The notes under the pieces: model-generated
The model's database searches: none
Seen by the model: only the letters and a program-made list of their open reading frames with translations
What the model was told of the DNA's origin: nothing
Translations under genes and position numbers: made by a program
DNA from: an uncultured Gammaproteobacteria bacterium
GTDB taxonomy: Bacteria > Patescibacteriota > Patescibacteriia > Magasanikbacterales > UBA922
Length of the DNA: 64,000 bases
Assembly: GCA_964344965.1 (NCBI GenBank)
Contig: CAYFPJ010000004.1
Span: 11,532 to 75,531 of the forward strand
Direction: 5' to 3'
Shown: positions 8,393-43,582 of the stretch, piece by piece
Layout of the letters: each line of letters opens with the position of its first letter
Position numbering within the stretch: the stretch's first letter is position 1

Positions 8393-8536
8393 ATAAAAGT
8401 AAATTTGGTTTAAGTAAGACTTCATCGGGCCATCCCCGCAGCAAGCTGCGGGGTATTGGCAGAAAATCTTATTTCAACCAATGTTAGTTTTCACTTTTTC
8501 GATGCAAGCATCGAGGAATAAAACCGCTTAAAGATT
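8393..8536 (+). repeat. ~145-bp interspersed repeat, copy A (internal hairpins CCCCGCAGC-AA-GCTGCGGGG and TCGATGC-AA-GCATCGA)
   Basis: Near-identical to copies at 29509, 37571, 40056 and 43439. Confidence 0.9.
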
Positions 8537-8556
8537 CAATCATAACGCATAACTAT

Positions 8557-9000
8557 ATGAACACAAAACACCCAATCGTACACTTCGAAATTCCAGCTGA
8601 CGATGTTGAGCGCGCGCAAGCGTTTTATCAGGAAACCTTTGGTTGGGGATTCCACAAATTTGATATGCCTAGCGACGGATCAACCGGTGGTGATCCATAC
8701 TATGGCGTCAGCACCACCGAAGTTGACGAAAACCACATGCCAACAAAACCAGGAACCATTAACGGTGGACTCATGAAACGCAAAGCACCTGGGCAACCGT
8801 TTATGAACTACATTCAGGCAGAGAGTATCGACGACGTGCTGCCAAAAATCAAAGAGCATGGTGGAGAGATAACCTTGCCAAAAACAGAAATCGCGCCTGG
8901 CATGGGCTGGATTGCTGCATTCAAAGATACCGAAGGCAACATGATGGGACTGCACGAACTCTCCGCCGAGCACAAAAAGAAAATGAAGGGAGAAAAGTAA
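8557..9000 (+). CDS. VOC/glyoxalase-bleomycin resistance family protein
   Basis: 147-aa ORF with a glyoxalase-like fold signature (HFEIP...FGW...GG...G..). Confidence 0.6.
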   Translation: MNTKHPIVHFEIPADDVERAQAFYQETFGWGFHKFDMPSDGSTGGDPYYGVSTTEVDENHMPTKPGTINGGLMKRKAPGQPFMNYIQAESIDDVLPKIKEHGGEITLPKTEIAPGMGWIAAFKDTEGNMMGLHELSAEHKKKMKGEK

Positions 9001-9004
9001 ACAT

Positions 9005-9889
9005 ATGCAAAAAATAGTTCCTCATCTCTGGTTTGAAACAAAAGCGAAAGAAGCGGTTGACTTCTATACGTCCATCTTCCCGAATTCAAAAACGCTATTT
9101 TCCGAAAAATTCCGCAGCACGCCATCAGGTGATATGGATATTATCGGGTTTGAAATTCTTGGATACGAATTTCAAGCGCTGGGTGCCGGACCACTCTACA
9201 CACCAAACCCATCTATTTCATTTATGATCAACTTTGATCCATCGCAGGATCAGGATGCTCGAAAGCGTATTGATGAGGTATGGGAGAACCTGCTCGTGGG
9301 CGGCAAAGTGCTCATGGATATTGATGCGTATCCATTTAGTGAACGGTATGGATGGGTCGAAGACAAATACGGATTTTCGTGGCAACTCATCTACACAAAA
9401 CCAGAAGGTGACGAACGGCCGCTAGTACTCCCCTCGTTCCTGTTTGTCACCGAAAGCGCAGAGCAAGCAGAAGAAGCAACAGACTTTTATCTTTCTGTAT
9501 TCAAAAATGCGAAACGCGGCAATCTGGCTCACTACCCTGTAGGAAGCGAACCAAACAAAGCAGGAGCCGTGATGTTTACGGACTTTACACTCGAAAACCA
9601 ATGGTTCGTGGCAATGGATGGAAGCAGCAAAATGCACGATTTTTTCTTTAATGAAATGGTGTCATGTATTATCCGCTGTCAGGACCAAAAAGAAATTGAT
9701 TACTACTGGAACAAACTCTCTGCAGTACCGGAGTCTGAACAATGCGGCTGGATAAAAGACAAGTACGGCATTTCGTGGCAGATTGTTCCAGAAAATATGG
9801 GAGAACTTATGAAAAGTGATGCCCAAGTACAAGCAATGCTCAAAATGAAAAAAATTATCATTGCTGATCTGGAGAGTGCGGGTAAATAA
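9005..9889 (+). CDS. tandem PhnB-like/3-demethylubiquinone-9 3-methyltransferase-like (VOC superfamily) domain protein
   Basis: 294-aa ORF with two repeated halves (VPHLWF..., YGFSWQ / YGISWQ). Confidence 0.6.
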   Translation: MQKIVPHLWFETKAKEAVDFYTSIFPNSKTLFSEKFRSTPSGDMDIIGFEILGYEFQALGAGPLYTPNPSISFMINFDPSQDQDARKRIDEVWENLLVGGKVLMDIDAYPFSERYGWVEDKYGFSWQLIYTKPEGDERPLVLPSFLFVTESAEQAEEATDFYLSVFKNAKRGNLAHYPVGSEPNKAGAVMFTDFTLENQWFVAMDGSSKMHDFFFNEMVSCIIRCQDQKEIDYYWNKLSAVPESEQCGWIKDKYGISWQIVPENMGELMKSDAQVQAMLKMKKIIIADLESAGK

Positions 9890-9906
9890 TATTAGAAAAA
9901 CCTCAT

Positions 9907-10437
9907 ATGCAACACTGGAGAGACCAGGCGGAAAAAAATGGATTGAATATACAAGAGCATGGCAGTTGTCAATTATGTGGTGCTCAGGTTGATGGCGGTA
10001 TTGCAGAATGTGTTACTATGTCAGATATTGTCACCCACAAGCTCAACCACGAAGATGCTGTGGCAAACATGACGATTTTTCTTTGTACAGATGCCCATGC
10101 GCTGCAGCACTCGGAAATTCACGGGCGATGGAACAACCATTTTCATCTTGCTCGTCTCCATTTGATTTTGAACAAAAACATACACTGGAATTATGAGCTT
10201 TCTCCAAAACTCAGTAGTGTAATTGACAAATACAAAACTCTGCATCCAGACAACAGAATATCTGCACCAGAACCAAAACAACGCGGGGCTTTTACAGTTT
10301 TTGAGCTAGGGAAAACGAGCGACCCAAAAGAATACGTAGATCTTGTTCAGCGTTGGGCAACAGAAGTACACGAAACCTATGCTTCAGGACACCATACTGC
10401 AGAAGACATTTCCGGTTTGCTTGCGGCAGAGAACTAA
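9907..10437 (+). CDS. hypothetical protein
   Basis: 176-aa ORF with no recognised motif; stop immediately abuts palindromic element E2. Confidence 0.5.
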   Translation: MQHWRDQAEKNGLNIQEHGSCQLCGAQVDGGIAECVTMSDIVTHKLNHEDAVANMTIFLCTDAHALQHSEIHGRWNNHFHLARLHLILNKNIHWNYELSPKLSSVIDKYKTLHPDNRISAPEPKQRGAFTVFELGKTSDPKEYVDLVQRWATEVHETYASGHHTAEDISGLLAAEN

Positions 10438-10440
10438 GAA

Positions 10441-10497
10441 GTGTTTGGGGGAGGGGCAATTCACCCCTTTAATTCCCCTCTTCCCCCTCCCCCAAAC
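10441..10497. repeat. G/C-run palindromic element E2 (GTTTGGGGGAGGGG...CCCCTCCCCCAAAC)
   Basis: Nested perfect inverted repeat; member of the family at 571, 32403, 58803, 47659 and 36841. Confidence 0.8.
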
Positions 10498-10735
10498 GGA
10501 AAAAGAAATTTGCACTAAAGTACAAGTGTCCCCTTGAAAATTTTTAAAATAATCCCGATTTCATCGGGAAAGAGAAAAGGAATACACCAGCCAACAGCGT
10601 ATATCTGGTTCGCGCTTGGGCTATCGCCCAAATGCTCACCCATATCCCGACTACGTTAGGACATCAGATATACGCGAACGTTAGCTAAAATTGTGCAAAT
10701 TTTTCTTCATTTTTCCAACCGCTAAAATAAAAAAT

Positions 10736-11443
10736 ATGGAACAACGAACAAATAAACCTACCCAAAACAAAAAGAACATTTGGGCAATTATTGTCCCTAT
10801 AATCGCAACTACTCTGATTGTCGGCGGTCTAATTTATTGGTGGCAAAATCAACAATTCCAAAAATACGAGACAAAAATTGAAAGTATAAAAACTGAATTG
10901 CAAAGCAAAGAAACAAATGAATTGTCACTACTCAAAGAAATCGAACAATTAAAAAAACAAGCGCAAGATAGTGAAACCGGCGAAACAGAAAACATCGCAC
11001 AAACCACAGGTGACGTGTTTGGAGACAAGTATGCAAACAATACCTACAATTTCAGTTTCACTATTCCCTCAAGCTGGGTATTTCAAAAAGAAGAACAAAA
11101 CATTGGTGGCGATCCTATCCGTCTTTATTTAACTGTTCCAGGATTTAAGGAAAAAACCTTGCCAGGAGCAGATTATATACTTTCAATTTCTGTCACCGAA
11201 AGAATTTTTGAAGAAGAATATCAATACGTGGGTAGGAATGTCAGCAAAGAAAGTGAAGAAAAAATCACTGTCGCCGGTAGAGAAGCAGTCAAAAGAATTG
11301 GCCGACATGAGTTTGGCGGGTATTTGACAGTCGTAATTTTACCAAATGAGAATAACACAATTGGGTTGGTTTTGCGCACCAATGAAGAACCTTATGCTTC
11401 ACAATTCAAGACCTTGTTAGACTCATTCGAATTTGCGGAGTAA
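10736..11443 (+). CDS. hypothetical membrane-anchored coiled-coil protein
   Basis: N-terminal TM helix (IWAIIVPIIATTLIVGGLIYWW) followed by a coiled-coil region. Confidence 0.55.
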   Translation: MEQRTNKPTQNKKNIWAIIVPIIATTLIVGGLIYWWQNQQFQKYETKIESIKTELQSKETNELSLLKEIEQLKKQAQDSETGETENIAQTTGDVFGDKYANNTYNFSFTIPSSWVFQKEEQNIGGDPIRLYLTVPGFKEKTLPGADYILSISVTERIFEEEYQYVGRNVSKESEEKITVAGREAVKRIGRHEFGGYLTVVILPNENNTIGLVLRTNEEPYASQFKTLLDSFEFAE

Positions 11444-11547
11444 AAAATAAGCACAATAACATATAGCAGACTCGTGTATCCTCACTCTTCCAAATTTGAC
11501 TTATCTTTTCTTTGTCGGTATATTGTAAGTAAAGTAATCTCTAGAAT

Positions 11548-11766
11548 ATGCGCAAAATTAGCATGAAAAATGTCGTGTGGAAAGAGGGTAAGCACTATGT
11601 ATCTTGGAATCTCAATACTGGAGTTTCCAGTTTTGGTAATACAAAAAAAGAAGCTCTTGCAATGCTCCAAGAAGCGCTAGAACTTCACCTAGAGGATGTA
11701 CCTGCTTCTAAAGTACAAAAAATTGAAAGACCTGTTCTAGAATCCATGATACTAAAACATGCCTAG
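11548..11766 (+). CDS. hicB: HicB-family antitoxin (UPF0150)
   Basis: 72-aa ORF, HicB-like; overlaps the downstream HicA-like ORF by 8 nt. Confidence 0.7.
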   Translation: MRKISMKNVVWKEGKHYVSWNLNTGVSSFGNTKKEALAMLQEALELHLEDVPASKVQKIERPVLESMILKHA

Positions 11767-11986
11767 ACCAATTTCACTAAAGATAGTATTAAGAGTCCTA
11801 CAAGAAAAGGGCTTCTTTTTTGTGAGACAAAAGGGGTCTCACGCCCGTTTTGAAAAGAAAACAAAAGGTAAAACGTTCAAAGTAACAGTGAAAGTTGGGA
11901 GCAAAGAGATTCCACATGGCACTTTTCAGTCTATTTTGCTTCAATCTGGATTGAAAGAGGATGATTTTAGAAACGTGAAAAAATAA
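11759..11986 (+). CDS. hicA: HicA-family mRNA interferase toxin (YcfA-like)
   Basis: 75-aa ORF with the HicA pattern VLQEKGFFFVRQKGSHARF. Confidence 0.75.
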   Translation: MPRPISLKIVLRVLQEKGFFFVRQKGSHARFEKKTKGKTFKVTVKVGSKEIPHGTFQSILLQSGLKEDDFRNVKK

Positions 11987-12056
11987 GTCAAACTTCTGCT
12001 ATACGCGAACGTTATCCAAAATACTTGCAAAAAATTTTAGGAGAAATTAACATAGT

Positions 12057-12419
12057 ATGAAAACAACACCAAGCCACAACGAAAGAATGGCAAACATGAC
12101 ATTTGCATCAGTATACCCACACTACCTAACAAAGATAAAAAAGAAAGACAGAACAAAAAAAGAACTACACGAAGTAATAACGTGGTTGACTGGATTCGAT
12201 GAAAAAAAGATCCAAAAAATGATCACAGAAAAAGTGACATTCCAAACATTCTTTGAAAAAGCAAAGCTCAATCCAAATGCCCACCTCATCACAGGAGTGA
12301 TATGTGGCTATCGGATAGAAGAAATCGAAAATCCACTCACACAAAAAGTGAGATACCTCGACAAACTTGTTGACGAATTGGCAAAAGGAAAAACCATGGA
12401 TAAAATTTTGCGTAAATAA
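12057..12419 (+). CDS. DUF2200 family protein
   Basis: 120-aa ORF; MTFASVYP...KKDRTKKELHEVITWLTGF matches the DUF2200 signature. Confidence 0.6.
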   Translation: MKTTPSHNERMANMTFASVYPHYLTKIKKKDRTKKELHEVITWLTGFDEKKIQKMITEKVTFQTFFEKAKLNPNAHLITGVICGYRIEEIENPLTQKVRYLDKLVDELAKGKTMDKILRK

Positions 12420-12436
12420 TATAATATTACAAAAAA

Positions 12437-13594
12437 ATGAAAGCCTCTAATAACAAAATATTCTCTATTGTCGGCACCATCATCACACTGCTCCTACTTG
12501 TCTTCCCCACTCATGCCACAAGCGCACAGCAGATAGATGATATAAACCTAGAAAGCCCCCCAGTGCAAAAAGACAAATTTTATCGCGCGATAGTGACAGA
12601 CGAACCAGAAGAGACCATGATTACAGAATTTGGGCAGACCCTACTCATCCAAAAAATACCACTTGAAATTGAAAACGGGCCAGAAAAAGGAAAAAAACTA
12701 GAACTAGACTTCAGTATCTCAGCCGGTAGTCCAGGTAGTACCAGACTTTCCAAATCAGACAAAGTAATAGTGGCCAAAAGTGTATTTGGTGAGGATGTGA
12801 CCTATTATATCAGCGATGTATACAGACTCAATTCCCTATGGCTTCTGTGCGGACTATTCTTGCTCTTAGCACTAATTTTTGCCAAATGGTCTGGTCTGCG
12901 AGCCCTTTTTGGACTTCTTATCAGTTTTGCCGTCATCATATGGTTTATTGTCCCAAAAATCATAGATGGTCATAACTCCCTAATTATTGGATTTGTCGGG
13001 ACACTCATCATTGCCACAGCATCTATTTTTATTGCCCATGGCTTCCGATCACGTACCACCATTGCTTTTGTAAGTACTGTCACCACCATACTTCTGACAA
13101 TACTGCTGGCCATACTTTTTACCAACCTCATGCATTTGTTTGGGCTAGGTAGTGAAGAGGCATTTTATTTACAAGCCACTCCAGAAAAAATATTTAATTT
13201 ACGTGGTATTTTGCTAGCTGGTATCATTATCGGAACCCTGGGAGTGCTTGACGATATCACCACAGCCCAAGCTGCAGTAGTAGAAGAATTACACAAGGCA
13301 AATCCTTCTCTTAGCATTCGAGAATTATTCACCAGAGGATCTTCAGTAGGACGAGAGCACATCATCTCACTAGTCAACACTCTAGTCCTAGCCTACACAG
13401 GAGCATCTTTACCACTACTCTTGCTATTCGATATCTACGAACGTCCGACATGGATTATCTTGAATAGTGAAATAGTAATTGAAGAGATAGTGCGAATGCT
13501 GATAGGAAGTATGGCCCTAATTCTGGCTGTGCCACTTACCACAGGGCTGGCAGCATGGTATTATGGCAGAAAGAAAAATATAGAAAATAAATAA
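12437..13594 (+). CDS. YibE/F family membrane protein
   Basis: 385-aa ORF with a signal/TM start, periplasmic domain, then multiple TM helices; GVLDDITTAQAA motif. Confidence 0.65.
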   Translation: MKASNNKIFSIVGTIITLLLLVFPTHATSAQQIDDINLESPPVQKDKFYRAIVTDEPEETMITEFGQTLLIQKIPLEIENGPEKGKKLELDFSISAGSPGSTRLSKSDKVIVAKSVFGEDVTYYISDVYRLNSLWLLCGLFLLLALIFAKWSGLRALFGLLISFAVIIWFIVPKIIDGHNSLIIGFVGTLIIATASIFIAHGFRSRTTIAFVSTVTTILLTILLAILFTNLMHLFGLGSEEAFYLQATPEKIFNLRGILLAGIIIGTLGVLDDITTAQAAVVEELHKANPSLSIRELFTRGSSVGREHIISLVNTLVLAYTGASLPLLLLFDIYERPTWIILNSEIVIEEIVRMLIGSMALILAVPLTTGLAAWYYGRKKNIENK

Positions 13595-13602
13595 TAAAAT
13601 TT

Positions 13603-13953
13603 ATGTTGTTAAAAGGAGTGGTGAAAAAAGGAACAGGTAAAGGCAGGAGAAGAGGTGTTCCAACAGCAAATATTATTATCGAAGAGAGACATTATAATTT
13701 CTTAAGAGAGGGAGTATACGCAGCCTGGACAAAACTAGACGGAAAGACTTATAAGTCAGCATTTTCTGCCCAAATAGAAAAAAGAAAGATACAAGTTCAC
13801 CTCATAGACTATACTGGAGATGACTTCTATGAAAAAGAAATAGAGATAGACCTATATCAGCAAATATCCCAAATGGAAGATTTCAACGATGAAGAAGAGC
13901 TGGCACAAAAAATACAAAGAGATATATCGATTGCCAGAGAGTGTCTCCAGTAG
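13603..13953 (+). CDS. riboflavin kinase (flavokinase domain only)
   Basis: 116-aa ORF; G.V..GTGKGRRRGVPTANI matches the flavokinase GxVxxGxxxGRxLGFPTAN motif. Confidence 0.7.
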   Translation: MLLKGVVKKGTGKGRRRGVPTANIIIEERHYNFLREGVYAAWTKLDGKTYKSAFSAQIEKRKIQVHLIDYTGDDFYEKEIEIDLYQQISQMEDFNDEEELAQKIQRDISIARECLQ

Positions 13954-13994
13954 CAAACTGAAATTATTTTACAAATTTATTTTAGAATTAAGCT

Positions 13995-14504: not shown

Positions 14505-14614
14505 ATCTCAAGCCAGCTAAAAAATCAACTTTCCTGTCCACTATCAAGAAGTTGATTTTTTGTTTATAAAGCTGTATCATAGTTTGAAGTGATAAAAAAT
14601 AACTTAATTAAATT

Positions 14615-17505: not shown

Positions 17506-17508
17506 TAC

Positions 17509-17811: not shown

Positions 17812-17820
17812 TTATTTAAA

Positions 17821-18318: not shown

Positions 18319-18334
18319 TCATAAGTCATTTTTT

Positions 18335-19241: not shown

Positions 19242-19247
19242 TAAAAT

Positions 19248-20261: not shown

Positions 20262-20368
20262 ACGTCATTGCGAGGAGTCTGAAAGAACGACGTGGCAATC
20301 TCAGTGTCTGTAAGTAAAAACGCGAGATTACCACGTCGTGTGGCTTCGCCCACCCCTCGCAATGACGA
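20262..20368. mobile_element. MITE-like element M1 with 15-bp terminal inverted repeats CGTCATTGCGAGGAG / CCTCGCAATGACG
   Basis: Homologous copies at 43314, 44727 and 47153; inserted between the riboswitch terminator and the first gene of the cluster. Confidence 0.8.
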
Positions 20369-20398: not shown

Positions 20399-21040
20399 AT
20401 GCAAAACACAAATTCAAAAATCCTTATCTTTGCGCTATTACTCCTACTTGCTGGAGCTGCTTGCAACCAAATAACAATACCAGAATCTCCATATGAATCT
20501 GATAAATCAGAAAAGATTGAAATAACAATAGATTCAGATTTGGAGATAGAACAAGTACCAAAAGTAGAAGAAGAGCTCCCGCCTGATGACACTCCCCCAC
20601 CAACTATAGTAGAAAAAAAAGTAGAAGAAAAACTGGAAATAGAAGATGGGTCCACGGCGCCAATAGATGTAGTCCCGCAGAAGCAGTCAAGGAATTATGA
20701 AAGTAAATACAAGAATAACACAGATAAAGAAAAAAGAGATGTGCTGATAACCTCATTTCTAGTACAAGACGAAGAGTATAATATAGAAATTCCCGAAGGT
20801 AGTACAGGCTACGATCTAATGCAGAGTGCTAGTACCCAATCAAATTTCACTTTCTCTGCCAAAAATTTTCCTGGTCTTGGTTATTTCATTGAAGAAATCA
20901 ATGGTCAAAAAAATGATCATATGAAAGGAATCTACTGGATTTATTATATCAACGGCGAAAAAGCAAAAGTAGGTATATCGAATTATTTATTAACTAATGG
21001 AGACATAATTGAATGGAAGTATGAAAATGAAAAATTTTAA
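20399..21040 (+). CDS. DUF4430 domain lipoprotein (transcobalamin beta-domain-like)
   Basis: Signal peptide with lipobox (LLLAGAAC); C-terminal DUF4430-like region YWIYYINGEKAKVGISNYLLTNGDIIEWKYE. Confidence 0.6.
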   Translation: MQNTNSKILIFALLLLLAGAACNQITIPESPYESDKSEKIEITIDSDLEIEQVPKVEEELPPDDTPPPTIVEKKVEEKLEIEDGSTAPIDVVPQKQSRNYESKYKNNTDKEKRDVLITSFLVQDEEYNIEIPEGSTGYDLMQSASTQSNFTFSAKNFPGLGYFIEEINGQKNDHMKGIYWIYYINGEKAKVGISNYLLTNGDIIEWKYENEKF

Positions 21041-24017
21041 ACCACTCCTGACAGGAATATTTATAATTGCAATACTAATCGCTCAACCCACTAGTGCAGA
21101 AGAGGTCAATATAGAGATGACTGCAAATAGTGAAGAAATTGTGGTGGAATCAATTGCAATAATATCTGAAGAAGAGATCATCCCAGATGATATTTTCATT
21201 ACAAATGAAAATATCACTGAAATGCAGAATGATGTTTCTGAAAATGAAACTAAATTTATCTTCGAAGAAACAATAGATGGTAATAATTTCGAAATAATTG
21301 CTGATGTCAGTAGTGGGAATAAAACAACTACATTCAGTATAGAAAACCTTTCAGATGCAGTTGCGATAGATTCTGTAGAACTCGAAGAAAAAAATGCTGA
21401 AGAAGATAACACAGGTACAGATATTCAAGATGAAAAAAATATAGAATCAAACATAGAAACCACCACCATCCACCTCCAACTAGAAACTATCGACGGTACC
21501 ATATTTGATAAAGAAGATTATGTGGTGGAAAGTTGTGAGTATGCTGATCAGTATGTCCTTACTGCTTGGTGCGCAATCCAGCAAGTAGCTGAAGAAGAAG
21601 GTTTGGGGCTGGATTATACAGATTATGGTGGTGATCTTGGTATATTTTTGGTATCAATCACATCAGATTTTGGTACACACAATTATCCAAGTTTCTTTGT
21701 AAATAATGAATGGGGACCCGGTCTTAGCAACTATCATTTACAAGAATATGATCATATTTTACTTGTCGGAGAGACATACCCCCTAAAACTAGATGTATCC
21801 ACGACTACGCCAGAAATAGGTACTACTACGACCATATCTGTCTATGAGGCAGGTTATGATGAGAATTGGAATGCTGGTTGGTTTTTGTCTGTGAGCAGTA
21901 CAATACTTGTCAATGGAGAAACCGTAGACAGTGACAGTGGAGTTTATCCGCTTGATGTTACCACTACTAGTGAATATCTGGTCCATGCTGTGAAAGATGG
22001 ATTTGTGGGGACTGGGGAGTTGACTATTAGTCCTTATAAAATAGAGGAAGCAGCTGCAGAGGTCATAAACTACCCCACCACCACCATCCACCTCCAACTA
22101 GAAACTATCGACGGTACCATATTTGATAAAGAAGATTATGTGGTGGAAAGTTGTGAGTATGCTGATCAGTATGTCCTTACTGCTTGGTGCGCAATCCAGC
22201 AAGTAGCTGAAGAAGAAGGTTTGGGGCTGGATTATACAGATTATGGTGGTGATCTTGGTATATTTTTGGTATCAATCACATCAGATTTTGGTACACACAA
22301 TTATCCAAGTTTCTTTGTAAATAATGAATGGGGACCCGGTCTTAGCAACTATCATTTACAAGAATATGATCATATTTTACTTGTCGGAGAGACATACCCC
22401 CTAAAACTAGATGTATCCACGACTACGCCAGAAATAGGTACTACTACGACCATATCTGTCTATGAGGCAGGTTATGATGAGAATTGGAATGCTGGTTGGT
22501 TTTTGTCTGTGAGCAGTACAATACTTGTCAATGGAGAAACCGTAGACAGTGACAGTGGAGTTTATCCGCTTGATGTTACCACTACTAGTGAATATCTGGT
22601 CCATGCTGTGAAAGATGGATTTGTGGGGACTGGGGAGTTGACTCTATCACCAATAACAACGACAGGAGATCAGACAGAAGAAGAAATAGAAGATGATCCT
22701 CCTGGCAATGGCGGGAGCGGAGGAGGCACTTCAAAACCAAATACAGAAACATCTCTAGAAATAATGATTAACAAAGCTTTTGAATACTTGTATAATGAAC
22801 AGCTGGAAGATGGCAGCTTTGAGATAACTCCATTTACAGACTGGGTGGCGATTGCCTTTGGTAAGTATGATTTTTCTGATGATCTCTTTACAACAGCAAA
22901 AAATAATTTAAAAACATTTCTGCAAGATGTATCTGAAAATGAATTAACACTTTTAACTGATTATGAACGGCACATCCTTGCCCGATCAGCACTTGATCTT
23001 GACGGGTATATTTACCAACAAAATATTTTAGATAAATTTGATGGTCAGCAATTTGGTAGTCCCGCTTTGATCAATGATGATATATTTGCTATTATTTCTT
23101 TGTGTGAAATTGGATACTGCATAAATGAGATAGAAACTGCGGCTGAAAATATCCGGAATGATTTTGTAGCTGATAATTTTTATGGTATTGATCTGACTGC
23201 TGCGGCCATTCGAGCTTTATTATTTATATATCCAAGCACAGATGAAGCTATTGCAAATGCCAAAGTACATCTCCAGAAAAACCAAGAATTAGATGGTGGA
23301 TTCAATAGTGAGGACGGAAGAGTAGATTCCACTAGCTGGGTAATGGATGCCATTGGTAAGATTGGCGATACTAGCTTTGACGGATGGACAAATAATGGTA
23401 AAACACCTTTGGATTACCTATCTGAAGTTCAAAATGACGATGGTAGTTTTGGAGAAACCAACAAAGTATGGTCTACAGCCTATGGTCTCATAGCTCTATC
23501 GCATGACTGGTCACTAGAGCCTGGCACAGAAAATAATCTTGTCAACGAAGATGAAACTACCAAAGAAAATAATTCTACAAATCAAAGTAGTGGATCAAAT
23601 ATTGTCATAAATACTACCACTACTACAGAAATAATGATTGACGAGAATCCTACTTCTACTCTTGATTTTATTATTGAGACCCCAAACAGCACTCCATCTT
23701 CAACTACCAAAGCAGAACAATCGGAAGAAAGCAATGATGAAGAAAAAAAAGGTAATGAAAATGTGAATAATAAGTCTACCAAAGACACAGTTTCTGTCGA
23801 AATAGTTCCTGAAGTGACACCAGTGAGGGCAATACTAGGTAAAAAAATTAATGACCAAGGTAATAGTATCGAAAAAGAAATAATAACTGATGAAAAAAAT
23901 GAAAAACAAAAAATAGTGCCAGTAAAAAATGAAAATAAATCATTCATAAATATAATCATGAACTTCATTTACAACATATTTTCTTCTGGTTTAAAATTTT
24001 TAAGTAATCTGATATAA
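21009..24017 (+). CDS. large secreted/anchored surface protein: signal peptide, acidic region, 2x (DUF4430-like + Ig-like) modules, Gly-rich linker, alpha/alpha-toroid (prenyltransferase/terpene-cyclase-like) domain, Thr/Ser-rich stalk, C-terminal TM anchor
   Basis: 1002-aa ORF; internal near-identical 206-aa tandem duplication; LEDGSFEITPFTDWVAIAFG... repeats resemble prenyltransferase alpha-alpha repeats. Confidence 0.7.
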   Translation: MNGSMKMKNFKPLLTGIFIIAILIAQPTSAEEVNIEMTANSEEIVVESIAIISEEEIIPDDIFITNENITEMQNDVSENETKFIFEETIDGNNFEIIADVSSGNKTTTFSIENLSDAVAIDSVELEEKNAEEDNTGTDIQDEKNIESNIETTTIHLQLETIDGTIFDKEDYVVESCEYADQYVLTAWCAIQQVAEEEGLGLDYTDYGGDLGIFLVSITSDFGTHNYPSFFVNNEWGPGLSNYHLQEYDHILLVGETYPLKLDVSTTTPEIGTTTTISVYEAGYDENWNAGWFLSVSSTILVNGETVDSDSGVYPLDVTTTSEYLVHAVKDGFVGTGELTISPYKIEEAAAEVINYPTTTIHLQLETIDGTIFDKEDYVVESCEYADQYVLTAWCAIQQVAEEEGLGLDYTDYGGDLGIFLVSITSDFGTHNYPSFFVNNEWGPGLSNYHLQEYDHILLVGETYPLKLDVSTTTPEIGTTTTISVYEAGYDENWNAGWFLSVSSTILVNGETVDSDSGVYPLDVTTTSEYLVHAVKDGFVGTGELTLSPITTTGDQTEEEIEDDPPGNGGSGGGTSKPNTETSLEIMINKAFEYLYNEQLEDGSFEITPFTDWVAIAFGKYDFSDDLFTTAKNNLKTFLQDVSENELTLLTDYERHILARSALDLDGYIYQQNILDKFDGQQFGSPALINDDIFAIISLCEIGYCINEIETAAENIRNDFVADNFYGIDLTAAAIRALLFIYPSTDEAIANAKVHLQKNQELDGGFNSEDGRVDSTSWVMDAIGKIGDTSFDGWTNNGKTPLDYLSEVQNDDGSFGETNKVWSTAYGLIALSHDWSLEPGTENNLVNEDETTKENNSTNQSSGSNIVINTTTTTEIMIDENPTSTLDFIIETPNSTPSSTTKAEQSEESNDEEKKGNENVNNKSTKDTVSVEIVPEVTPVRAILGKKINDQGNSIEKEIITDEKNEKQKIVPVKNENKSFINIIMNFIYNIFSSGLKFLSNLI
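21459..22650 (+). repeat. near-perfect tandem duplication (2 x 618 bp) inside the 21009-24017 CDS
   Basis: Copy 1 begins at 21459 and copy 2 at 22077; about 574 bp identical at nucleotide level before divergence at 22033 / 22651. Confidence 0.9.
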
Positions 24018-29383: not shown

Positions 29384-29508
29384 AAACTAAAGCAAATTAG
29401 GCAGAGTACGCAGAATAGGCCAAATAAGCAAAAGATGTAGTGGCATTAATTTCGTATCCTTAATCTGCATACTCTGCTTATTCTGCTTTGACTATCCAAG
29501 TTTAATAA

Positions 29509-29652
29509 ATAAAAGTAAATTTGGTTTAAGTAAGACTTCATCGTGCCATCCCCGCAGCAAGCTGCGGGGTATTGGCATAAAATTCTATTTCAACCAATGT
29601 GAGTCTTCACTTTTTCGATGCAAGCATCGAGGAATAAAACCACTTAAAGATT
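29509..29652 (+). repeat. ~145-bp interspersed repeat, copy B (most divergent, ~8 substitutions)
   Basis: Sequence identity to copies A, C, D and E. Confidence 0.9.
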
Positions 29653-33621: not shown

Positions 33622-33660
33622 AACACAGATTACACAAATTTTTACGGATTATACAGATCA

Positions 33661-33994: not shown

Positions 33995-34070
33995 AATAGA
34001 TTTGTTAATTAATTTTATGTTTTAAGATAAAATTTTTGTTCCATGCTATATGTTACATGCTCCATGAAAA

Positions 34071-35171: not shown

Positions 35172-35235
35172 AAATTTTAATCCTAAATCATAAATCTAAA
35201 ATCCTAAATAAAAATAACATTTATGATTTAGGATT

Positions 35236-36081: not shown

Positions 36082-36162
36082 GGAACACGAATTTTAACAC
36101 GAATCAACACGAATATTTTTAACAAAAATTATTAACAAAATTTGTGCATATTCGTGTTAAGA

Positions 36163-37281: not shown

Positions 37282-37570
37282 GTGTATTAAATAATTTTGT
37301 GTAGCCTGTCGGCTGAAACTTTATAGAAGACAGATTCCAAATGACTAACTGTACTGTTAGTTTTGACATATATCAATACGCTTTTCCTAAAATATAAAAT
37401 TTGGTTGAAAGTCTTTAAACTACATGTGAAGCGCCTAATTTTTTATCTATTTCATCCAAAAAATTTTCCCATCCAAGATTACGTAAAGAATATAATATTT
37501 GCTCTAGTTCTTCTAGTGTGTCTATGTCTTGATTATATTCCAACAAAATATTCTTTAATCTAGACATAAA

Positions 37571-37715
37571 ATAAAAGTAAATTTGGTTTAAGTAAGACTT
37601 CATCGGGCCATCCCCGCAGCAAGCTGCGGGGTATTGGCAGAAAATCTTATTTCAACCAATGTTAGTTTTCACTTTTTCGATGCAAGCATCGAGGAATAAA
37701 ACCGCTTAAAGATTT
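37571..37715 (+). repeat. ~145-bp interspersed repeat, copy C
   Basis: Identical to copy D; the 3' end supplies the last 17 codons and stop of gene 37662-38204. Confidence 0.9.
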
Positions 37716-38204
37716 AAGTTCCAATTCTATTTCTTTGCCAATTCTTCCATAAAAAATCTCTTTTGATTTTGGCATTCTCTTGGTTTTTCTGTTTGTGACG
37801 TTAGTTACGATATCTCCATGGGCAGACGTATTGACAGCCATCATGTTTCTTAAAAAAAATTTTCTCTCCTCTTCAGATAAAGAATTATTCCAACCGCCCT
37901 GATTCAAAAAATTAGAAAAGGCTCTAACACAATCAAATCCGTAATGCAATTCTACCCATAAAAAAAACAGGTGTTGATCAGTCGGGCTTCCTCTAGAAAC
38001 CCTAAAACTTTCTGTAATAAAAGAAATAAACGATTGTCTGGTAATCCGATCCCCTTCCCGATACAAAACAATATCATCCTTACTCTGCGGAGCATTCTCC
38101 GGATCAAAATCTTCTGGTGTCAAAAAATAACGTTCAGGTTTACCTGTGTCTCGTGCATCTGTTTGAGTGACATCTGGTCTACGACCTGGTTTTGGGTCTG
38201 TCAT
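37662..38204 (-). CDS. hypothetical protein
   Basis: 180-aa ORF whose C-terminus is encoded by repeat copy C. Confidence 0.5.
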   Translation of the reverse strand: MTDPKPGRRPDVTQTDARDTGKPERYFLTPEDFDPENAPQSKDDIVLYREGDRITRQSFISFITESFRVSRGSPTDQHLFFLWVELHYGFDCVRAFSNFLNQGGWNNSLSEEERKFFLRNMMAVNTSAHGDIVTNVTNRKTKRMPKSKEIFYGRIGKEIELELKSLSGFIPRCLHRKSEN

Positions 38205-38229
38205 ATATTTAAAAACTTAGCAAACTTAG

Positions 38230-39144
38230 CTACTTAGACAACTTAGCAAGGCGATCATTCACCCACGCCATCCCAATCCCCACTGGTCTCAACAAAGCAA
38301 TCCACACCCATTTGTACCACGGTTCCCATTTTTGAAAATAACTGAGCATTGACTTGGTAAATTGCTTCTGCTTCCAGAGTGTCGTCCTTTTTTTAAAACT
38401 TTGTCCGACATAGTCGACGCAAGTGATAATTGGTGTATATATTACTTTGTAGCCATGACGCTTCGCTTCCCGACAAATATCGACATCTTCGTACCAGATA
38501 AAATAGCGTGGATCAAAGGCCCAGCCAGTCTTATCAAGAAACTCTCGTCGCATGAGCATGAATGAGCCACGGATAGAATCTACTTCTTGCTCCTGATCTG
38601 GATCCATATCCCGCATGTGGTATTTATTTAAGATGCTTGGAAAAACGTGAGGGATCTTCAAAATCAAAGCTATCTGCTCCCATAGTTTTGGCAATCTCCG
38701 TGGTGAAGCATTCCAAACAAAATTTCCTTCGCGGTCCACTAACTTGACGCTGACAATGCCCACTTCCTTGTGAGACTTCATCCAATCAAGAATTTTGTCA
38801 AGGCTCCCTGGCTCGACGCGCATGTCAGGATTGAGAAATAATATATATTCTCCTGTTGTTTTTTTTAGTCCTTGATTGTTGGCAGCACCAAACCCCAAAT
38901 TCTTTTCATTTGATATTACATGTACTGATGAAAAATCTTTTGACCTCAAAAACTCTACAGTCCCATCTGTTGATCCATTGTCCACCACAATTTCTTCACA
39001 ACTAATCTTTTCACACCCATCAAAAACAGAACGAATCTGTTCTTCGATCCGTTCTTTGGAATTCCAAGTGACTGTAATGATTGATAGGTCCATAAAAGTC
39101 TGTTTGTGATCTTTTTTCCTGTTATATTCTTTTAGAGATTCCAT
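38230..39144 (-). CDS. family 2 glycosyltransferase (GT2)
   Basis: ITVTWNSKERIEEQIRSV...VVDNGSTDGT. Confidence 0.8.
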   Translation of the reverse strand: MESLKEYNRKKDHKQTFMDLSIITVTWNSKERIEEQIRSVFDGCEKISCEEIVVDNGSTDGTVEFLRSKDFSSVHVISNEKNLGFGAANNQGLKKTTGEYILFLNPDMRVEPGSLDKILDWMKSHKEVGIVSVKLVDREGNFVWNASPRRLPKLWEQIALILKIPHVFPSILNKYHMRDMDPDQEQEVDSIRGSFMLMRREFLDKTGWAFDPRYFIWYEDVDICREAKRHGYKVIYTPIITCVDYVGQSFKKRTTLWKQKQFTKSMLSYFQKWEPWYKWVWIALLRPVGIGMAWVNDRLAKLSK

Positions 39145-39147
39145 ATG

Positions 39148-39618
39148 TCAATCGAATGATGACTCCAAACCATCTAGGACACTAACAAGTAGACCGAAAT
39201 TCAACTCCACATTCTCTTCTGAAGGTCTCTCACCTTTTTCACCAATATTGTGTATCATGATCTTTATCTCTGATAAGTGATGATCAAAGGCATCAATAAA
39301 AATAATATCTGAACCACTATCATTGACCAACTTAGCAAATCGAGAGCGTATATCATCCAACGTCTCGTTCACTTCTTCAGGACTCATCTTTTCTCCTCTT
39401 ATTGGACGTACGTCTCTATCAAAATTTCCCCTTCTAACTAACCTAGCAATTACAGTACGTGCTCTACCAATGGACCCACTGATTAATCTTATTCTAGCTC
39501 TCATAGTATCTGGATCAATTTCTAGTTTTTGTCTCTCTTCTATATTCTTTCTATATGCCACAAAATCAATCACATTGTTACCTCCTCCTGGTTTTTTAGT
39601 ATCAGACATATTTATCAA
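39148..39618 (-). CDS. hypothetical protein
   Basis: 156-aa ORF tightly packed with its neighbours. Confidence 0.45.
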   Translation of the reverse strand: MINMSDTKKPGGGNNVIDFVAYRKNIEERQKLEIDPDTMRARIRLISGSIGRARTVIARLVRRGNFDRDVRPIRGEKMSPEEVNETLDDIRSRFAKLVNDSGSDIIFIDAFDHHLSEIKIMIHNIGEKGERPSEENVELNFGLLVSVLDGLESSFD

Positions 39619-39655
39619 ACTATAGTAATGACTTTAAAAAACTTATTTACTTGAT

Positions 39656-40048
39656 CTAAGAGACAACTGACAACATTATTTTCTTTCTAACTTTTTCTTG
39701 TAGAAAACTAATAGTTGTGCGAGCTTTTTTTGTGTCAATTTCATCCTCTTTATCCATAACTAATTCCCTGAGATCAATAAAATCTTCACCAGGATCCTCG
39801 TCTTGAGCTCTACCACGCCCTTCTTCCGGAATCAAGGGGTCTGCACCATTGGCATGGATATATTTTCTTTTACTGTTTAGAAAAATGACATTTGAGCCGT
39901 CATCTGGATAAACCTCTTCCAAGTTATCAGAATTCCTAGATCCTGACAAAAAACCATGTGGATCAAAGTCATTTATATGACTAGTAGACACTTCTTTCAA
40001 TAAAAGACCAAGCTCACCCTCTTCCCACAACGGCCAATTCTCCCGCAA
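39656..40048 (-). CDS. hypothetical acidic protein
   Basis: 130-aa ORF with no ATG near the 5' end; would need a TTG start. Confidence 0.35.
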   Translation of the reverse strand: MRENWPLWEEGELGLLLKEVSTSHINDFDPHGFLSGSRNSDNLEEVYPDDGSNVIFLNSKRKYIHANGADPLIPEEGRGRAQDEDPGEDFIDLRELVMDKEDEIDTKKARTTISFLQEKVRKKIMLSVVS

Positions 40049-40055
40049 AAAATCA

Positions 40056-40200
40056 ATAAAAGTAAATTTGGTTTAAGTAAGACTTCATCGGGCCATCCCC
40101 GCAGCAAGCTGCGGGGTATTGGCAGAAAATCTTATTTCAACCAATGTTAGTTTTCACTTTTTCGATGCAAGCATCGAGGAATAAAACCGCTTAAAGATTT
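40056..40200 (+). repeat. ~145-bp interspersed repeat, copy D
   Basis: Identical to copy C; supplies the stop codon of gene 40191-40718. Confidence 0.9.
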
Positions 40201-40718
40201 AAATCTGTTATACTTTTTGTTATTTCTTCCCCCAATATTTCAGCCAAAATTTCCATTTTCCCTGCTGCAATTTCTTGTCGAACCTCGTAAGATTGCTTGT
40301 TCAATTCCACCAACTTATCATCAACATCATAGATAGAAGGTGTCCAAGATTCTCCCTCTCGATATACAGAATAATTTATTTCATGCAATTGTAAATAATT
40401 ATTCAACGCTCTTTTTTCTTCGTCAGTCAAATTTGGATACCTCTTTTTGAATTCTTCAAATATTATTTTTGAAAATGCTATAGTGAGTTCATACTGATAC
40501 CACTCTCTATCTAAATCACAATCTCCATGTTCCAAATCATCAGGAAAAAGACTGAGGGGATATTTTTTGGCATCTTTTTTTGTAGCCAAAGCATCATCCC
40601 TACCCAGAGTGTCTCTGTAAGTCTCTAACTTTCTTTTTTCTTTGATGAGTCTTTCTAATTGTTGTGTAATTTGCCTTCCAGCCTCTGCACTTGGCCACTT
40701 ACCTTGCAGTATTCCCAT
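40191..40718 (-). CDS. hypothetical protein
   Basis: 175-aa ORF. Confidence 0.5.
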   Translation of the reverse strand: MGILQGKWPSAEAGRQITQQLERLIKEKRKLETYRDTLGRDDALATKKDAKKYPLSLFPDDLEHGDCDLDREWYQYELTIAFSKIIFEEFKKRYPNLTDEEKRALNNYLQLHEINYSVYREGESWTPSIYDVDDKLVELNKQSYEVRQEIAAGKMEILAEILGEEITKSITDLNL

Positions 40719-40731
40719 ATTTTATTTATTT

Positions 40732-41586
40732 TCAGATATTTAGATTTTTATTTTCTGCATATTTCTCCATTGTGTCCCGCATCCCTACATGCACTTCCCG
40801 CATTTCAATCCCAATACTAGCCAAATTTTCTGAAGCAAGAAAATTATTAGATCTACCTTTTGTGGCAAGACCTTGTTTTACCAAGTCATCATTGGTGATC
40901 CATTCATTGGTATGAGTAGGATCCACAAGTTCTTCATAGAGATCAATAATCTCACGATGCTTGAGAATGCCAGGATTGGTGACGTGAAAAATACCTTCTG
41001 CTTTTTTTTCTAGCAGCTGATAAAACACATCTACCATGTCATCGACAATCGTCACACTATTTTCCACATCAATCACCTTTGGAAAGCTAGCTAGCTTGTC
41101 GATCATGTTATTTGGTGATGGGATGTGATCAATAGGCATGCGAATGCGAGCAATCCCCACTTTTGGCAAAGTAGACAAGACAAGATCAGCCGCCCACTTG
41201 GCACGAGAGTAGGTCACTTCAGTTGGATTACCCATGTCTCCTTCTCGCCACCTCTTATCCTCATGTGGTGAGTCACCGTAGAAGATACAACCAGATCCAA
41301 TATGAAGAAGGTAAATATTTCGCTCCTGACAAGCCTCGGCAATAGTGATTGGTAGCTTGGTATTGCCAAGCATGGTTTCCAGAGGATGATCCTCACACCA
41401 GTCTACATTTGGCTTGCCACGTACTCCTGCGGCGTTCAAAACTGCATCTGGCTGATGCTCGTCAATAAGTTTTAGTACATCTTCTTTGGAGTTAATTCTT
41501 TCAGCAGACAAAACTGAATCTGACCAATCCTTGTGACAACGCTTACCTACATATCCAGCTCCGATAATTAATATCTTCATAAACAA
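40732..41586 (-). CDS. NAD(P)-dependent sugar-nucleotide reductase/epimerase, RmlD-like (dTDP-4-dehydrorhamnose reductase family)
   Basis: N-terminal Rossmann motif ILIIGAGYVG; short-chain epimerase/RmlD-like overall; adjacent to rmlB. Confidence 0.6.
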   Translation of the reverse strand: MFMKILIIGAGYVGKRCHKDWSDSVLSAERINSKEDVLKLIDEHQPDAVLNAAGVRGKPNVDWCEDHPLETMLGNTKLPITIAEACQERNIYLLHIGSGCIFYGDSPHEDKRWREGDMGNPTEVTYSRAKWAADLVLSTLPKVGIARIRMPIDHIPSPNNMIDKLASFPKVIDVENSVTIVDDMVDVFYQLLEKKAEGIFHVTNPGILKHREIIDLYEELVDPTHTNEWITNDDLVKQGLATKGRSNNFLASENLASIGIEMREVHVGMRDTMEKYAENKNLNI

Positions 41587-41616
41587 GTTTGTAAATTAAA
41601 AATTTCAAATTAAAAA

Positions 41617-42621
41617 TTATTCACGTCCGTACCACTCCTCATAATAATCCTGATACGCTCCACTCTTACACCTCTCTACCCATTCTTGATTATTTTGATA
41701 CCATTCGATCATCTCTCTTAGAGCGTATTCAAACTTTACCTGAGGTTTCCAACCAAGTTCATTTTTTGCTTTAGAAAAATTAATAGCATAACGACGATCA
41801 TGACCTGGACGATCTTTGACAAAATCAATACTGCTTTCATCTTTATCCATCAACATCAAAAGAGTCTTGGTCAAATCAAGGTTTGTCATTTCACTATCTC
41901 CACCAAGACAATATGTCTCCCCTATTTTTCCATTCTTAATAATTACCTCAATCCCACGAGCGTGATCATCTACATGGATCCAGTCACGAACCTGGAGACC
42001 GTCACCATACACTGGAACTTTCTTTCCTTCCATTAGGTTGGAAATAAAAAGTGGTATCAACTTCTCTGGAAACATGTACGGACCATAGTTGTTGGAACAG
42101 TTTGATATAGTAACCTGCAATCCATAAGTATGAAAATAGGATCTTACCAGATGATCAGATGCTGCCTTGGATGCAGAGTAAGGACTACGAGGATCATAAG
42201 ATGTAGATTCATCAAAGGCAGGATCCTCTGGCTTCAAAGCTCCAAAAACTTCATCTGTCGAAACATGATGAAAACGCTTCTGATATTCTCTAGCAGCATC
42301 TAAAAGAACTTGTGTACCGAGAACATTGGTACGAACGAATGCACTAGGATCTAGGATAGAACGATCGACATGGGATTCTGCTGCAAAATGTACAACAACA
42401 TCGACATCTTTCACTGTCGCAAAGACCAAATCACGATCACAGATATCACCCTTTACAAAAGAATAATTTTGATTGTCTTTTAAATCTTTTAAATTTTCAA
42501 GATTACCGGCATAAGTGAGTAAATCAAAATTAACAATCTCATCTTCTGAATTGCTCTCCATCCAATAACGAATAAAATTTGATCCAATAAACCCAGCACC
42601 GCCAGTTACCAATAGACGCAT
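41617..42621 (-). CDS. rmlB: dTDP-glucose 4,6-dehydratase
   Basis: MRLLVTGGAGFIGSNF...; TDEV and YSASK catalytic motifs. Confidence 0.85.
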   Translation of the reverse strand: MRLLVTGGAGFIGSNFIRYWMESNSEDEIVNFDLLTYAGNLENLKDLKDNQNYSFVKGDICDRDLVFATVKDVDVVVHFAAESHVDRSILDPSAFVRTNVLGTQVLLDAAREYQKRFHHVSTDEVFGALKPEDPAFDESTSYDPRSPYSASKAASDHLVRSYFHTYGLQVTISNCSNNYGPYMFPEKLIPLFISNLMEGKKVPVYGDGLQVRDWIHVDDHARGIEVIIKNGKIGETYCLGGDSEMTNLDLTKTLLMLMDKDESSIDFVKDRPGHDRRYAINFSKAKNELGWKPQVKFEYALREMIEWYQNNQEWVERCKSGAYQDYYEEWYGRE

Positions 42622-42722
42622 AAACGACAAATTAAATTAAATCACTATATTATTTACTAAATAAAGTTCGTGGTACTGGTGACGGGTAGGTCCCAGCACC
42701 GCCAGTTACCAACAATTTCATA

Positions 42723-43106
42723 TTATTTTACAATATACTCGTAGCTGTCATCTGTACGCAAAGGAAAATTACTAAAAACCACCACTATTGCTGACTCCTC
42801 TCCGACATTGGTAGTTGAATGAGCTACTAGGTTGGGGATATGAATGACATCTCTTCCCGGTACCAACTTCATGTCTTTTCTTTTTTTGGAAACGACGTGC
42901 TCCATTTTTAGAGAGACATCACCCTTTTCTGCATAAATCATTATCCTATTTTCTTTGTGATAATGATTGCCGGTAGTAACTCCAGGATCAATAACCAAAC
43001 GAGACATATAGATGTCTCCCACTTTTACACTAGACAAAACTCTACCAGGCTTACTAGCATCATCTTTCATCTTGAAATGAGTGATAAATTCTTCTTTTCT
43101 GTTCAT
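42723..43106 (-). CDS. cupin-domain protein, possible dTDP-sugar epimerase/isomerase (RmlC/FdtA-like)
   Basis: 127-aa beta-rich ORF with cupin-like HYHKEN...H motifs, in a sugar-nucleotide gene context. Confidence 0.45.
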   Translation of the reverse strand: MNRKEEFITHFKMKDDASKPGRVLSSVKVGDIYMSRLVIDPGVTTGNHYHKENRIMIYAEKGDVSLKMEHVVSKKRKDMKLVPGRDVIHIPNLVAHSTTNVGEESAIVVVFSNFPLRTDDSYEYIVK

Positions 43107-43127
43107 AAAGCCACATTGTTTAATCCC

Positions 43128-43282
43128 GACCTCGTTCCTCGGTACGGGACGAGAGATCGGTTTAACCTGCCTGCCGGTCTTCGACTATGAAGCTCAGACT
43201 GAATAGCAGGCAGGTTCCCCGGGGCTTGCCCCGGAAAAATTGGTCAAGGACTTGCCCTGGAGTTCATACCATTGATTTATTT
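43128..43282 (+). repeat. ~150-nt structured element, family F copy 1 (three hairpins; shared 30-nt module TCCCGACCTCGTTCCTCGGTACGGGACGAG)
   Basis: Homologous to the reverse complement of 63790-63965. Confidence 0.7.
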
Positions 43283-43313
43283 TGAATTACGAAAAACTCT
43301 AATCTCGTCATTG

Positions 43314-43412
43314 CGAGGAGTGCGCGAAGCAAGCACGACGTGGCAATCTAGACTTTGGAAGTGTAGATTGCTTCGTCATCCCGTACTTCGTCGGGATTCC
43401 TCGCAATGACGA
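43314..43412. mobile_element. MITE-like element M2 (TIR TCGTCATTGCGAGGAG)
   Basis: Same TIRs as M1, M3 and M4. Confidence 0.8.
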
Positions 43413-43438
43413 AAATGCAATTTAACGAGTAGTGTGAA

Positions 43439-43582
43439 ATAAAAGTAAATTTGGTTTAAGTAAGACTTCATCGGGCCATCCCCGCAGCAAGCTGCGGGGT
43501 ATTGGCAGAAAATCTTATTTCAACCAATGTTAGTTTTCACTTTTTCGATGCAAGCATCGAGGAATAAAACCGCTTAAAGATT
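43439..43582 (+). repeat. ~145-bp interspersed repeat, copy E
   Basis: Identity to copies A, C and D. Confidence 0.9.

Follow-up and report, generated by a model that had tools for sequence, protein, structure and literature searches.

Palindrome-associated transposable elements (PATEs) were defined in Haloquadratum walsbyi (Dyall-Smith et al., 2011; PMC3119063). They lack terminal inverted repeats (TIRs), carry, close to their termini, palindromes akin to those found in insertion sequences (ISs) of the IS200/IS605 family, are too short to encode a transposase, have a short 5' targeting oligonucleotide, do not duplicate their target and occur in 'homogeneous' bursts of near-identical copies. 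Here we describe a repeat with these same properties in a 64-kb stretch of metagenomic DNA (the window, by which we mean the whole stretch that was analysed) from Candidatus Magasanikbacteria, a member of the candidate phyla radiation (CPR). We consider it very likely that the repeat is itself a PATE, consisting of the two fused ends, left (LE) and right (RE), of an IS200-group IS of the IS200/IS605 family without a transposase gene. It differs from the elements of H. walsbyi in its host, which is a CPR bacterium and not a haloarchaeon, and in its affiliation with a tnpA-only IS200 subgroup, whereas the haloarchaeal elements relate to IS605-type transposons, mostly with an IS1341-type tnpB (PMC3119063). 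In addition, palindrome and terminus are 42 nt apart at the 3' end but 19-22 nt apart at the 5' end, whereas the H. walsbyi PATEs are described with the opposite asymmetry (PMC3119063).

In IS608 and ISDra2, subterminal hairpins lie in the same orientation at the two ends, with a guide sequence 5' of the foot of each hairpin (He et al., 2013; PMC3597680). The cleavage sites of IS608 are not read directly by the protein but through base contacts with this guide tetranucleotide, and the element inserts 3' of a short target in single-stranded DNA, with targeting to the lagging strand (PMC3597680). The window element shares with these ISs the hairpin arrangement, the position of the guides, the side of insertion, 3' of a short target, and the length of the LE linker (19 nt), and their preference for the lagging strand would fit the orientation of its copies. 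It differs from IS608 in the sequences of the hairpins, the target and the ends, in having neither tnpA nor tnpB, and in the length of the RE linker, which is 42 nt compared with 10 nt in IS608. The motifs at the two ends are TT[y]AAT and TTyATT in the window element and TTAC and TCAA in IS608. A second precedent is provided by the PATE-like elements of Geobacillus stearothermophilus (ISGst elements; Meers et al., 2023; PMC10055086). These are gene-less and combine the two ends (LE and RE) found in autonomous ISs, and mobilization in trans is predicted for them; they have a transposon-adjacent motif (TAM) beside the LE and a compatible DNA guide within it, and the co-dependence of the two has been demonstrated (PMC10055086). 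The window element resembles them in its lack of genes, its LE and RE, its putative TAM and the guide base within its LE, and would likewise be mobilized in trans. The ISGst elements are IS605-type, with TnpB or IscB and often with omega-RNAs; neither a nuclease nor an omega-RNA is evident here.

A search for repeats in the window, followed by alignment, recovered five direct copies on one strand, each of 145 nt and with sharp boundaries (Table 1), in agreement with a first, sequence-only reading that had described five near-identical copies of ~145 bp. Copies 1, 3, 4 and 5 are 100% identical. Copy 2 carries seven substitutions, none of which falls in the hairpins, the guide bases or the terminal motif, a pattern that is only weakly significant. 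The near-identity reported earlier (0-8 substitutions among copies) therefore stands with its maximum corrected to seven, the eighth 'substitution' being a flank base outside the element. A sixth copy (L250:1-122), 100% identical and in the same orientation, is located ~5.1 kb upstream of window position 1 and 80 nt upstream of guaA. The target motif of this copy reads TTAAAT, and only its LE-side flank is available. Five of the six copies are identical to each other, and together the six are spread over ~49 kb. We regard the copies as genuine, because an independent ENA assembly contains copy 2 with identical flanks and other independent contigs from the same samples break inside identical copies; ENA contig L250 both begins and ends within repeat copies. 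Two doubts raised in the sequence-only reading, that the repeat might be unique to the window or might be an artefact of duplication during assembly, are thereby removed. All six copies have the same orientation (chance P ~0.03), independent of the strand of the local genes. Near 24-25 kb both the strand of the genes and the local GC skew change while copy orientation remains constant, and the GC skew is ambiguous.

The anatomy of the element is described with copy 3 as the reference. The active (top) strand is the minus strand of the window. On this strand the TT[y]AAT target is followed by a 19-nt LE linker, the LE hairpin (hairpin 2), a spacer, the RE guide AATA, the RE hairpin (hairpin 1) and a 42-nt RE linker that ends in TTTATT. 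With a slash at the proposed cleavage sites, the left end on the hairpin-2 side can be written TT[y]AAT/C-N6-GGTTTTATTCC-hairpin and the right end on the hairpin-1 side AATA-CCCCGCAGCTTGCTGCGGGG...TTTATT/. Both hairpins are perfect, as noted in the earlier reading; on the top strand they share a CTTG loop and the same orientation, and both are subterminal. Within the window the hairpin 1 motif has 10 matches and the hairpin 2 motif five, in every copy and nowhere else, where 0.00 would be expected. TT is present at positions -3 and -2 in 6/6 copies (P ~7e-7), followed by the variable base y (A, A, A, A, G, T). This base belongs to the flank and not to the element, since it is the sole difference of copies 1 and 5 from the consensus. 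By analogy with the register of the RE, cleavage at the LE would fall after AAT, so that the target would be TT[y]AAT and the LE linker would measure exactly 19 nt; the position could be off by 3 nt.

These features also bear on the nature of the repeat. At 145 nt it is too short for a transposase gene, and there is no target-site duplication, the flanks of the five window copies sharing no direct repeat. The imperfect TIRs reported in the sequence-only reading, AAATTTGGTTTAAG and CTTAAAGATTT, show only weak complementarity (~11/14 matches, with a gap), are not terminal and do not define the element. Of the proposal of a recently active miniature inverted-repeat transposable element (MITE), the part that is supported is a recently active, non-autonomous mobile element. 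A classical MITE was rejected, as the repeat has neither TIRs matching those of a DDE-type IS nor a target-site duplication. That earlier reading had also seen a loose likeness to the VCR/attC cassette boundaries of Vibrio. It seems to us extremely improbable that the copies are integron-like attC sites of the VCR type, or a TIR-bearing MITE moved by a DDE transposase, even though they have one orientation, occur at the 3' ends of short open reading frames (ORFs) in a variable glycan-synthesis locus and show the weak complementarity just described. The ends contain no GTTRRRY or RYYYAAC core sites (R''/R'), and the window encodes neither an integron integrase nor attI; its sole tyrosine recombinase adjoins a type I restriction-modification (R-M) locus with two hsdS genes. 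Moreover, two of the copies lie among housekeeping genes, the copies are scattered over 49 kb, and both ends are homologous to IS200 ends, as follows.

We scanned a genome collection with the hairpin-1 20-mer CCCCGCAGCAAGCTGCGGGG and obtained more than 118 loci, a lower bound, in many bacterial lineages and in archaea. The whole repeat is absent from the loci listed. The flanks of hairpin 1 are conserved across these loci as AATGAAsCT-hairpin-TATC, and a second module, stem-CAAG-stem-GGGAATTAnACCC, often follows ~30 nt after it, giving the same two-module build as the window repeat. Clustering of the ORFs near hairpin 1 yielded one adjacent family, the IS200-like Y1 transposases (PF01797), and no recurrent neighbour gene other than tnpA among the listed loci. 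In L036, L039, L072 and L108 the PF01797 match has an E value of 1e-33 to 1e-40, and each gene is bracketed by two hairpins of the hairpin-1 type. On the transposase strand the solo motif is the RE (GATA-hairpin-AGsTTCATT) and the second module is the LE; therefore, the natural direction of the window repeat is that of the minus strand, where hairpin 2 belongs to the LE and hairpin 1 to the RE. When a metagenome collection was scanned with a 25-mer found only in the window element, there were zero matches, so the organism is not represented in that collection, and a search of the literature for the hairpin sequence found no mention of it.

A second search used an LE pattern, AATC-N6-8-GGTTTWATTCC-N5-GCWWGC, which was run on metagenomes and matched at least 120 loci, 118 of them unique. 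A Y1 tnpA is located directly downstream of the LE in 13 loci, on the same strand in 13/13, and six of the 13 have a recognizable RE and form complete ISs of 542-623 nt. The proteins encoded in these LE-tnpA loci contain the HUH motif and are typical IS200 TnpAs. Gene-less LE+RE minis (PATEs) of 82-292 nt account for 24 LE loci. When the tnpA region of one IS (L171) was compared with plasmid DNA, matches of 65-70% identity over 38-63% of its length were found, and all four annotated regions among them are labelled IS200/IS605 family transposase. The window element is collinear with the family minis (68-70% identity over ~105 nt). In a MAFFT alignment the LE, the RE guide, the RE hairpin and the terminal TTTATT are in register with the minis, and the window element has 33 additional nt inserted after hairpin-1+ATG and before TTTATT. 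With a covariance model derived solely from family REs, exactly the five hairpin-1 sites were found in the window, all on the minus strand (25 bits, E 8e-5), compared with 12.6 bits on the plus strand. The homology of the ends is to the family as a whole, the comparison containing no IS from the same genome.

Distinct from the window element, the hairpin CCCCGCAGCAAGCTGCGGGG was also seen as solitary IS200-RE-like copies and in tiny two-hairpin units (for example L049, L079, L120 and L031). Hosts among the matches listed are Nitrospira, Deltaproteobacteria/Desulfobacterales, Lachnospiraceae, Verrucomicrobiota, Saccharibacteria, Methanosarcinales and Methanotrichaceae, and the 4-nt loop is either CAAG or CTTG inside the same flanks. 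Five viral or proviral contigs of IMG/VR (L253-L257) carry the common LE variant GGTTTAATTCC (W=A) of this IS200 subgroup. The LE variant of the window type, GGTTTTATTCC (W=T), was found in no viral contig of that database.

Among the options offered by the sequence-only reading, a likeness to repetitive extragenic palindromic sequences (REPs) comes nearest, since the enzymes that process REPs are related to this transposase family. REPs are hairpins processed by REP-associated tyrosine transposases (RAYTs), which belong to the same Y1/HUH family (PMC2817692, PMC3479197). REPs and bacterial interspersed mosaic elements (BIMEs) resemble the window copies as intergenic hairpin repeats recognized by Y1/HUH enzymes, with possible effects on mRNA, and REPs differ from them as single short palindromes, often in inverted pairs and with a single-copy RAYT, whereas the window copies are two-ended LE/RE units, all direct. 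A REP/RAYT system in the strict sense, with domesticated palindromes kept by a single-copy RAYT for host roles such as mRNA stabilization or protein binding, would agree with the wide occurrence of solitary hairpin 1 copies in many genomes and with the location of all window copies in intergenic DNA or at gene 3' ends. We nevertheless judge it highly improbable, because the unit of 145 nt has two different ends matching tnpA-carrying ISs of 542-623 nt, its copies are solitary and direct with no inverted REP pairs or BIMEs, no Y1 domain is encoded in any frame of the window, and the identity of the copies suggests recent transposition as a unit. A REP is, furthermore, a short single palindrome with a conserved GTAG-type head on its 5' side, and no conserved head of this type is found 5' of the palindromes here.

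The assignment as a PATE predicts a relationship between the guide bases and the sites of insertion. In the 5' flank of the family LEs, T occupies positions -3, -2 and -1 in 97, 116 and 109 of 117 matches respectively. The base W of GGTTT[W]ATTCC in the LE covaries with the flank base y of TT[y]AAT across independent insertion sites (Fisher p = 6e-8): y is T in 108/110 cases where W is A, and A in 5/7 where W is T. In a hairpin-derived set that was not selected for the LE head, W and y form a Watson-Crick pair in 13/14 cases, including G-C. At the RE, the pairing joins x, the first base of the xATA located 5' of the hairpin, to y in the terminal TTyATT; a guide G is accompanied by C in 15/17, A by T in 8/10 and C by G in 5/6. 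The RE x-y pair is formed in 96% of the cells of alignment A3, in which the hairpin stems also covary (0/500 shuffles reach the observed score). In the window element, W in the LE is T (with y = A, A, A, A, G, T) and the RE has x=A with terminal y=T. The window copies obey both the LE and the RE guide rules, a signature of the IS608 type.

Table 1. Copies of the repeat in the window, and parts of the element in copy 3. A slash marks the edge of the repeat or of the RE; flanks are those of the top strand.
Feature	Position	Strand	Remarks
PATE copy 1	8392..8536	-	Between DUF1428 and glyoxalase-like genes (both +); 5' flank ...ATTG/AATC; RE model match 8431-8453(-), E 8e-5
PATE copy 2	29508..29652	-	Between murA and S41 peptidase gene; sole diverged copy; 5' flank ...ATTA/AATC
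PATE copy 3	37570..37714	-	Gives 17 codons and stop to ORF 37662-38204; 5' flank ...CTTA/AATC
PATE copy 4	40055..40199	-	Gives final 1-2 codons and stop to ORF 40191-40718; 5' flank ...TTTA/AATC
PATE copy 5	43438..43582	-	In 603-nt NUDIX-cupin spacer; 5' flank ...TTTT/AATC
Putative target/cleavage motif TT[y]AAT (TAM), abuts LE	37712..37717	-	Copy flanks, family flank counts, LE guide covariation
LE linker CTTTAAGCGGTTTTATTCC, 19 nt, guide base W = T at 37698	37693..37711	-	Same length as IS608 LE linker
LE hairpin (hairpin 2) TCGATG-CTTG-CATCGA	37677..37692	-	Top-strand sequence
RE guide tetranucleotide AATA, directly 5' of RE hairpin	37632..37635	-	RE covariation
RE hairpin (hairpin 1) CCCCGCAG-CTTG-CTGCGGGG	37612..37631	-	Top-strand sequence
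33-nt insertion in RE linker relative to family	37576..37608	-	Pairs with LE-RE spacer, hairpin of ~100 nt
Terminal RE motif TTTATT/ (transposon-encoded motif, TEM; putative RE cleavage site)	37570..37575	-	Family alignment, RE covariation

By homology with IS608 and ISDra2, a Y1/HUH TnpA, encoded elsewhere in the genome or formerly present, would bind both subterminal hairpins on single-stranded DNA and would locate the two cleavage sites through base contacts with the guide bases 5' of each hairpin. The top strand would then be excised as a circle and reinserted 3' of another TT[y]AAT, without duplication of the target. Insertion would favour the lagging-strand template, and a preference of this kind may explain the single orientation of the six copies. 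Mobilization in trans, a coupling to replication and the precise points of cleavage (to within 3 nt) are all suggested by comparison with characterized members of the family. As side effects, insertion would probably provide upstream ORFs with new stops or C-terminal tails, and transcripts running in the same direction would acquire stable stem-loops at their 3' ends.

The distribution of the element is in keeping with recent mobility. It is missing from the syntenic murA-ctp region and from a 21 kb conserved neighbourhood of two relatives, whose MurA proteins are 81% and 78% identical. The murA-ctp spacer is 303 nt in the window compared with 160 nt and 18 nt in the relatives, which contain no trace of the element. 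Since the copies are identical and are absent from the syntenic sites of these relatives, the element has probably spread recently in this Candidatus Magasanikbacteria genome.

Several points weigh against the assignment as a PATE or against parts of the proposed mechanism. No cognate tnpA is present in the ~70 kb of genome sequence examined (the window and ~6 kb more). The spacers of the relatives provide no base-precise empty site, because their intergenic DNA is too diverged to align. The orientation bias (6/6) cannot be attributed to replication on the basis of the ambiguous GC skew. The LE search pattern was partly derived from the window element, so the similarity of the LEs is in part a matter of construction; the flank motif, the covariation, the linkage to tnpA and the RE features are independent of that pattern. 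Finally, the RE linker of 42 nt is long in comparison with ~9 nt in the family, and cleavage at the RE may be inefficient, because the predicted long stem would keep the terminal motif far from the guide. In IS608, doubling the RE linker costs only ~7-fold in transposition (PMC3597680). Given this tolerance and the identity of the window copies, continued mobility of the element seems plausible despite its long RE linker.

The long stem arises from the 33 nt that are additional to the family RE. Their pairing with the LE-RE spacer creates a hairpin of ~100 nt whose end coincides with the 3' boundary of the element, and explains why both strands fold so strongly (RNA -51.5 kcal/mol, z = -6.9, and -48.7 kcal/mol, z = -4.9; DNA z = -4.4). 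It could be argued that the copies are functional RNA modules: small structured RNAs, as the sequence-only reading had suggested, 3'-end terminators or stabilizers, or a PATE with an omega-RNA-like scaffold for a TnpB or IscB acting in trans. In addition to the folding and the unusual extension, four copies are located just downstream of co-oriented genes, and PATEs often carry omega-RNAs (PMC10055086). Such a structure is, however, already expected from the transposition hairpins, and the copies gave no Rfam match at gathering thresholds and only chance-level matches at permissive ones. Copies 1 and 6 are antisense to neighbouring genes, the window encodes neither TnpB nor IscB, and family minis of 82-100 nt are too small for a guide scaffold. 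A consensus scan found no site resembling an intrinsic terminator at any copy, so the second half of the idea of a REP-like terminator element is not supported. With two sequence variants only, there is no power to detect covariation within the genome. We therefore think a functional RNA module improbable as an account of the repeat, although a secondary effect of the element at the RNA level is possible. A related proposal, which we also consider unlikely, retains the PATE and treats the 33-nt extension with its complementary spacer as a functional module acquired by a still-mobile element, for example a ~100-nt stem that ends or stabilizes transcripts or a minimal scaffold resembling a guide RNA that acts in trans. 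If this were true, an IS200-type mini-element would be spreading a regulatory RNA structure through a reduced CPR genome, and IS200 TnpA would tolerate cargo between the RE hairpin and the cleavage site.

The genes around the copies are housekeeping and glycan-synthesis genes. As the earlier reading had stated, the repeat supplies C-terminal codons or the stop of the ORFs upstream of copies 3 and 4 (Table 1). For the first of these, ORF 37662-38204 (180 aa), a comparison with 5.8 billion proteins gave no homologue, and for this reason the ORF may not be a real gene. It is unrelated to ORF 40191-40718. A unit composed of repeat plus gene was considered and rejected, since the two small ORFs share no relationship. 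The proteins of the window are singletons at 90% identity, and MurA homologues at 81-65% identity carry the name Candidatus Magasanikbacteria.

Other small repeats were observed in the window. A second, unrelated palindromic family of ~105 nt is present at 20263-20367, 43306-43411, 44738-44836 and 47154-47255. The outer inverted repeats of this family are 14 nt long (CGTCATTGCGAGGA...TCCTCGCAATGACG) and enclose a further inverted pair (GACGTGGCAATC/GATTGCCACGTC). Its 14-mer has nine matches compared with 0.16 expected. Every copy is intergenic, and between copies the interiors have diverged to a mean column identity of 67%. This family resembles a true TIR-type MITE or a REP-like element. One of its copies is ~30 nt from PATE copy 5, in the NUDIX-cupin spacer (43107-43709), which is 603 nt in length compared with 151 nt in the relative L126. 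Further hairpins in the spacer are CCGGGGCAAGCCCCGG on the minus strand at 43219-43234 and AACCTGCCTGC/GCAGGCAGGTT at 43164-43216. The spacer, which holds PATE copy 5 and the second-family repeat as well, seems to be a place where small sequences of a structured or mobile kind collect locally.

Elsewhere in the window, the segment 1741-7246 encodes the tyrosine recombinase (1741-2553, minus strand), a Fic protein, a type I R-M methylase (4067-6103) and two adjacent hsdS-type genes (~6043-7246), a layout typical of phase-variable (shufflon-like) type I R-M loci. The 1002-aa ORF 21009-24017, which has only a sub-threshold match to DUF3281, contains a 300-nt direct repeat (21459-21758 and 22077-22376) that is 100% identical with a spacing of 618 nt. 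Its origin would be either the recent duplication of an internal domain or a collapse or expansion during assembly. Two large ORFs, 44899-47127 (742 aa) and 47346-49556 (736 aa), have no Pfam domain.

Overall, the element is an additional member of a kind of PATE that is already known, well documented but ordinary, and the current understanding of the IS200/IS605 family is unchanged. For annotation, the repeats should be labelled as PATEs of the IS200/IS605 type with defined strand, ends and target, and the tails of ORFs 37662-38204 and 40191-40718 should be treated cautiously. The breaks that short-read assemblies of this Magasanikbacteria genome show at the copies are likewise explained by the repeats. 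For the organism, the finding means that mobile DNA of the PATE type is probably active in a small CPR genome. For the family, it draws attention to one IS200 subgroup with a near-invariant 20-nt hairpin across many bacterial lineages and some archaea, in which natural variation alone recovers the biochemical guide/target pairing rule of IS608, one base per end. With this one-base code, the sequence of any member of the family is enough to predict its target.

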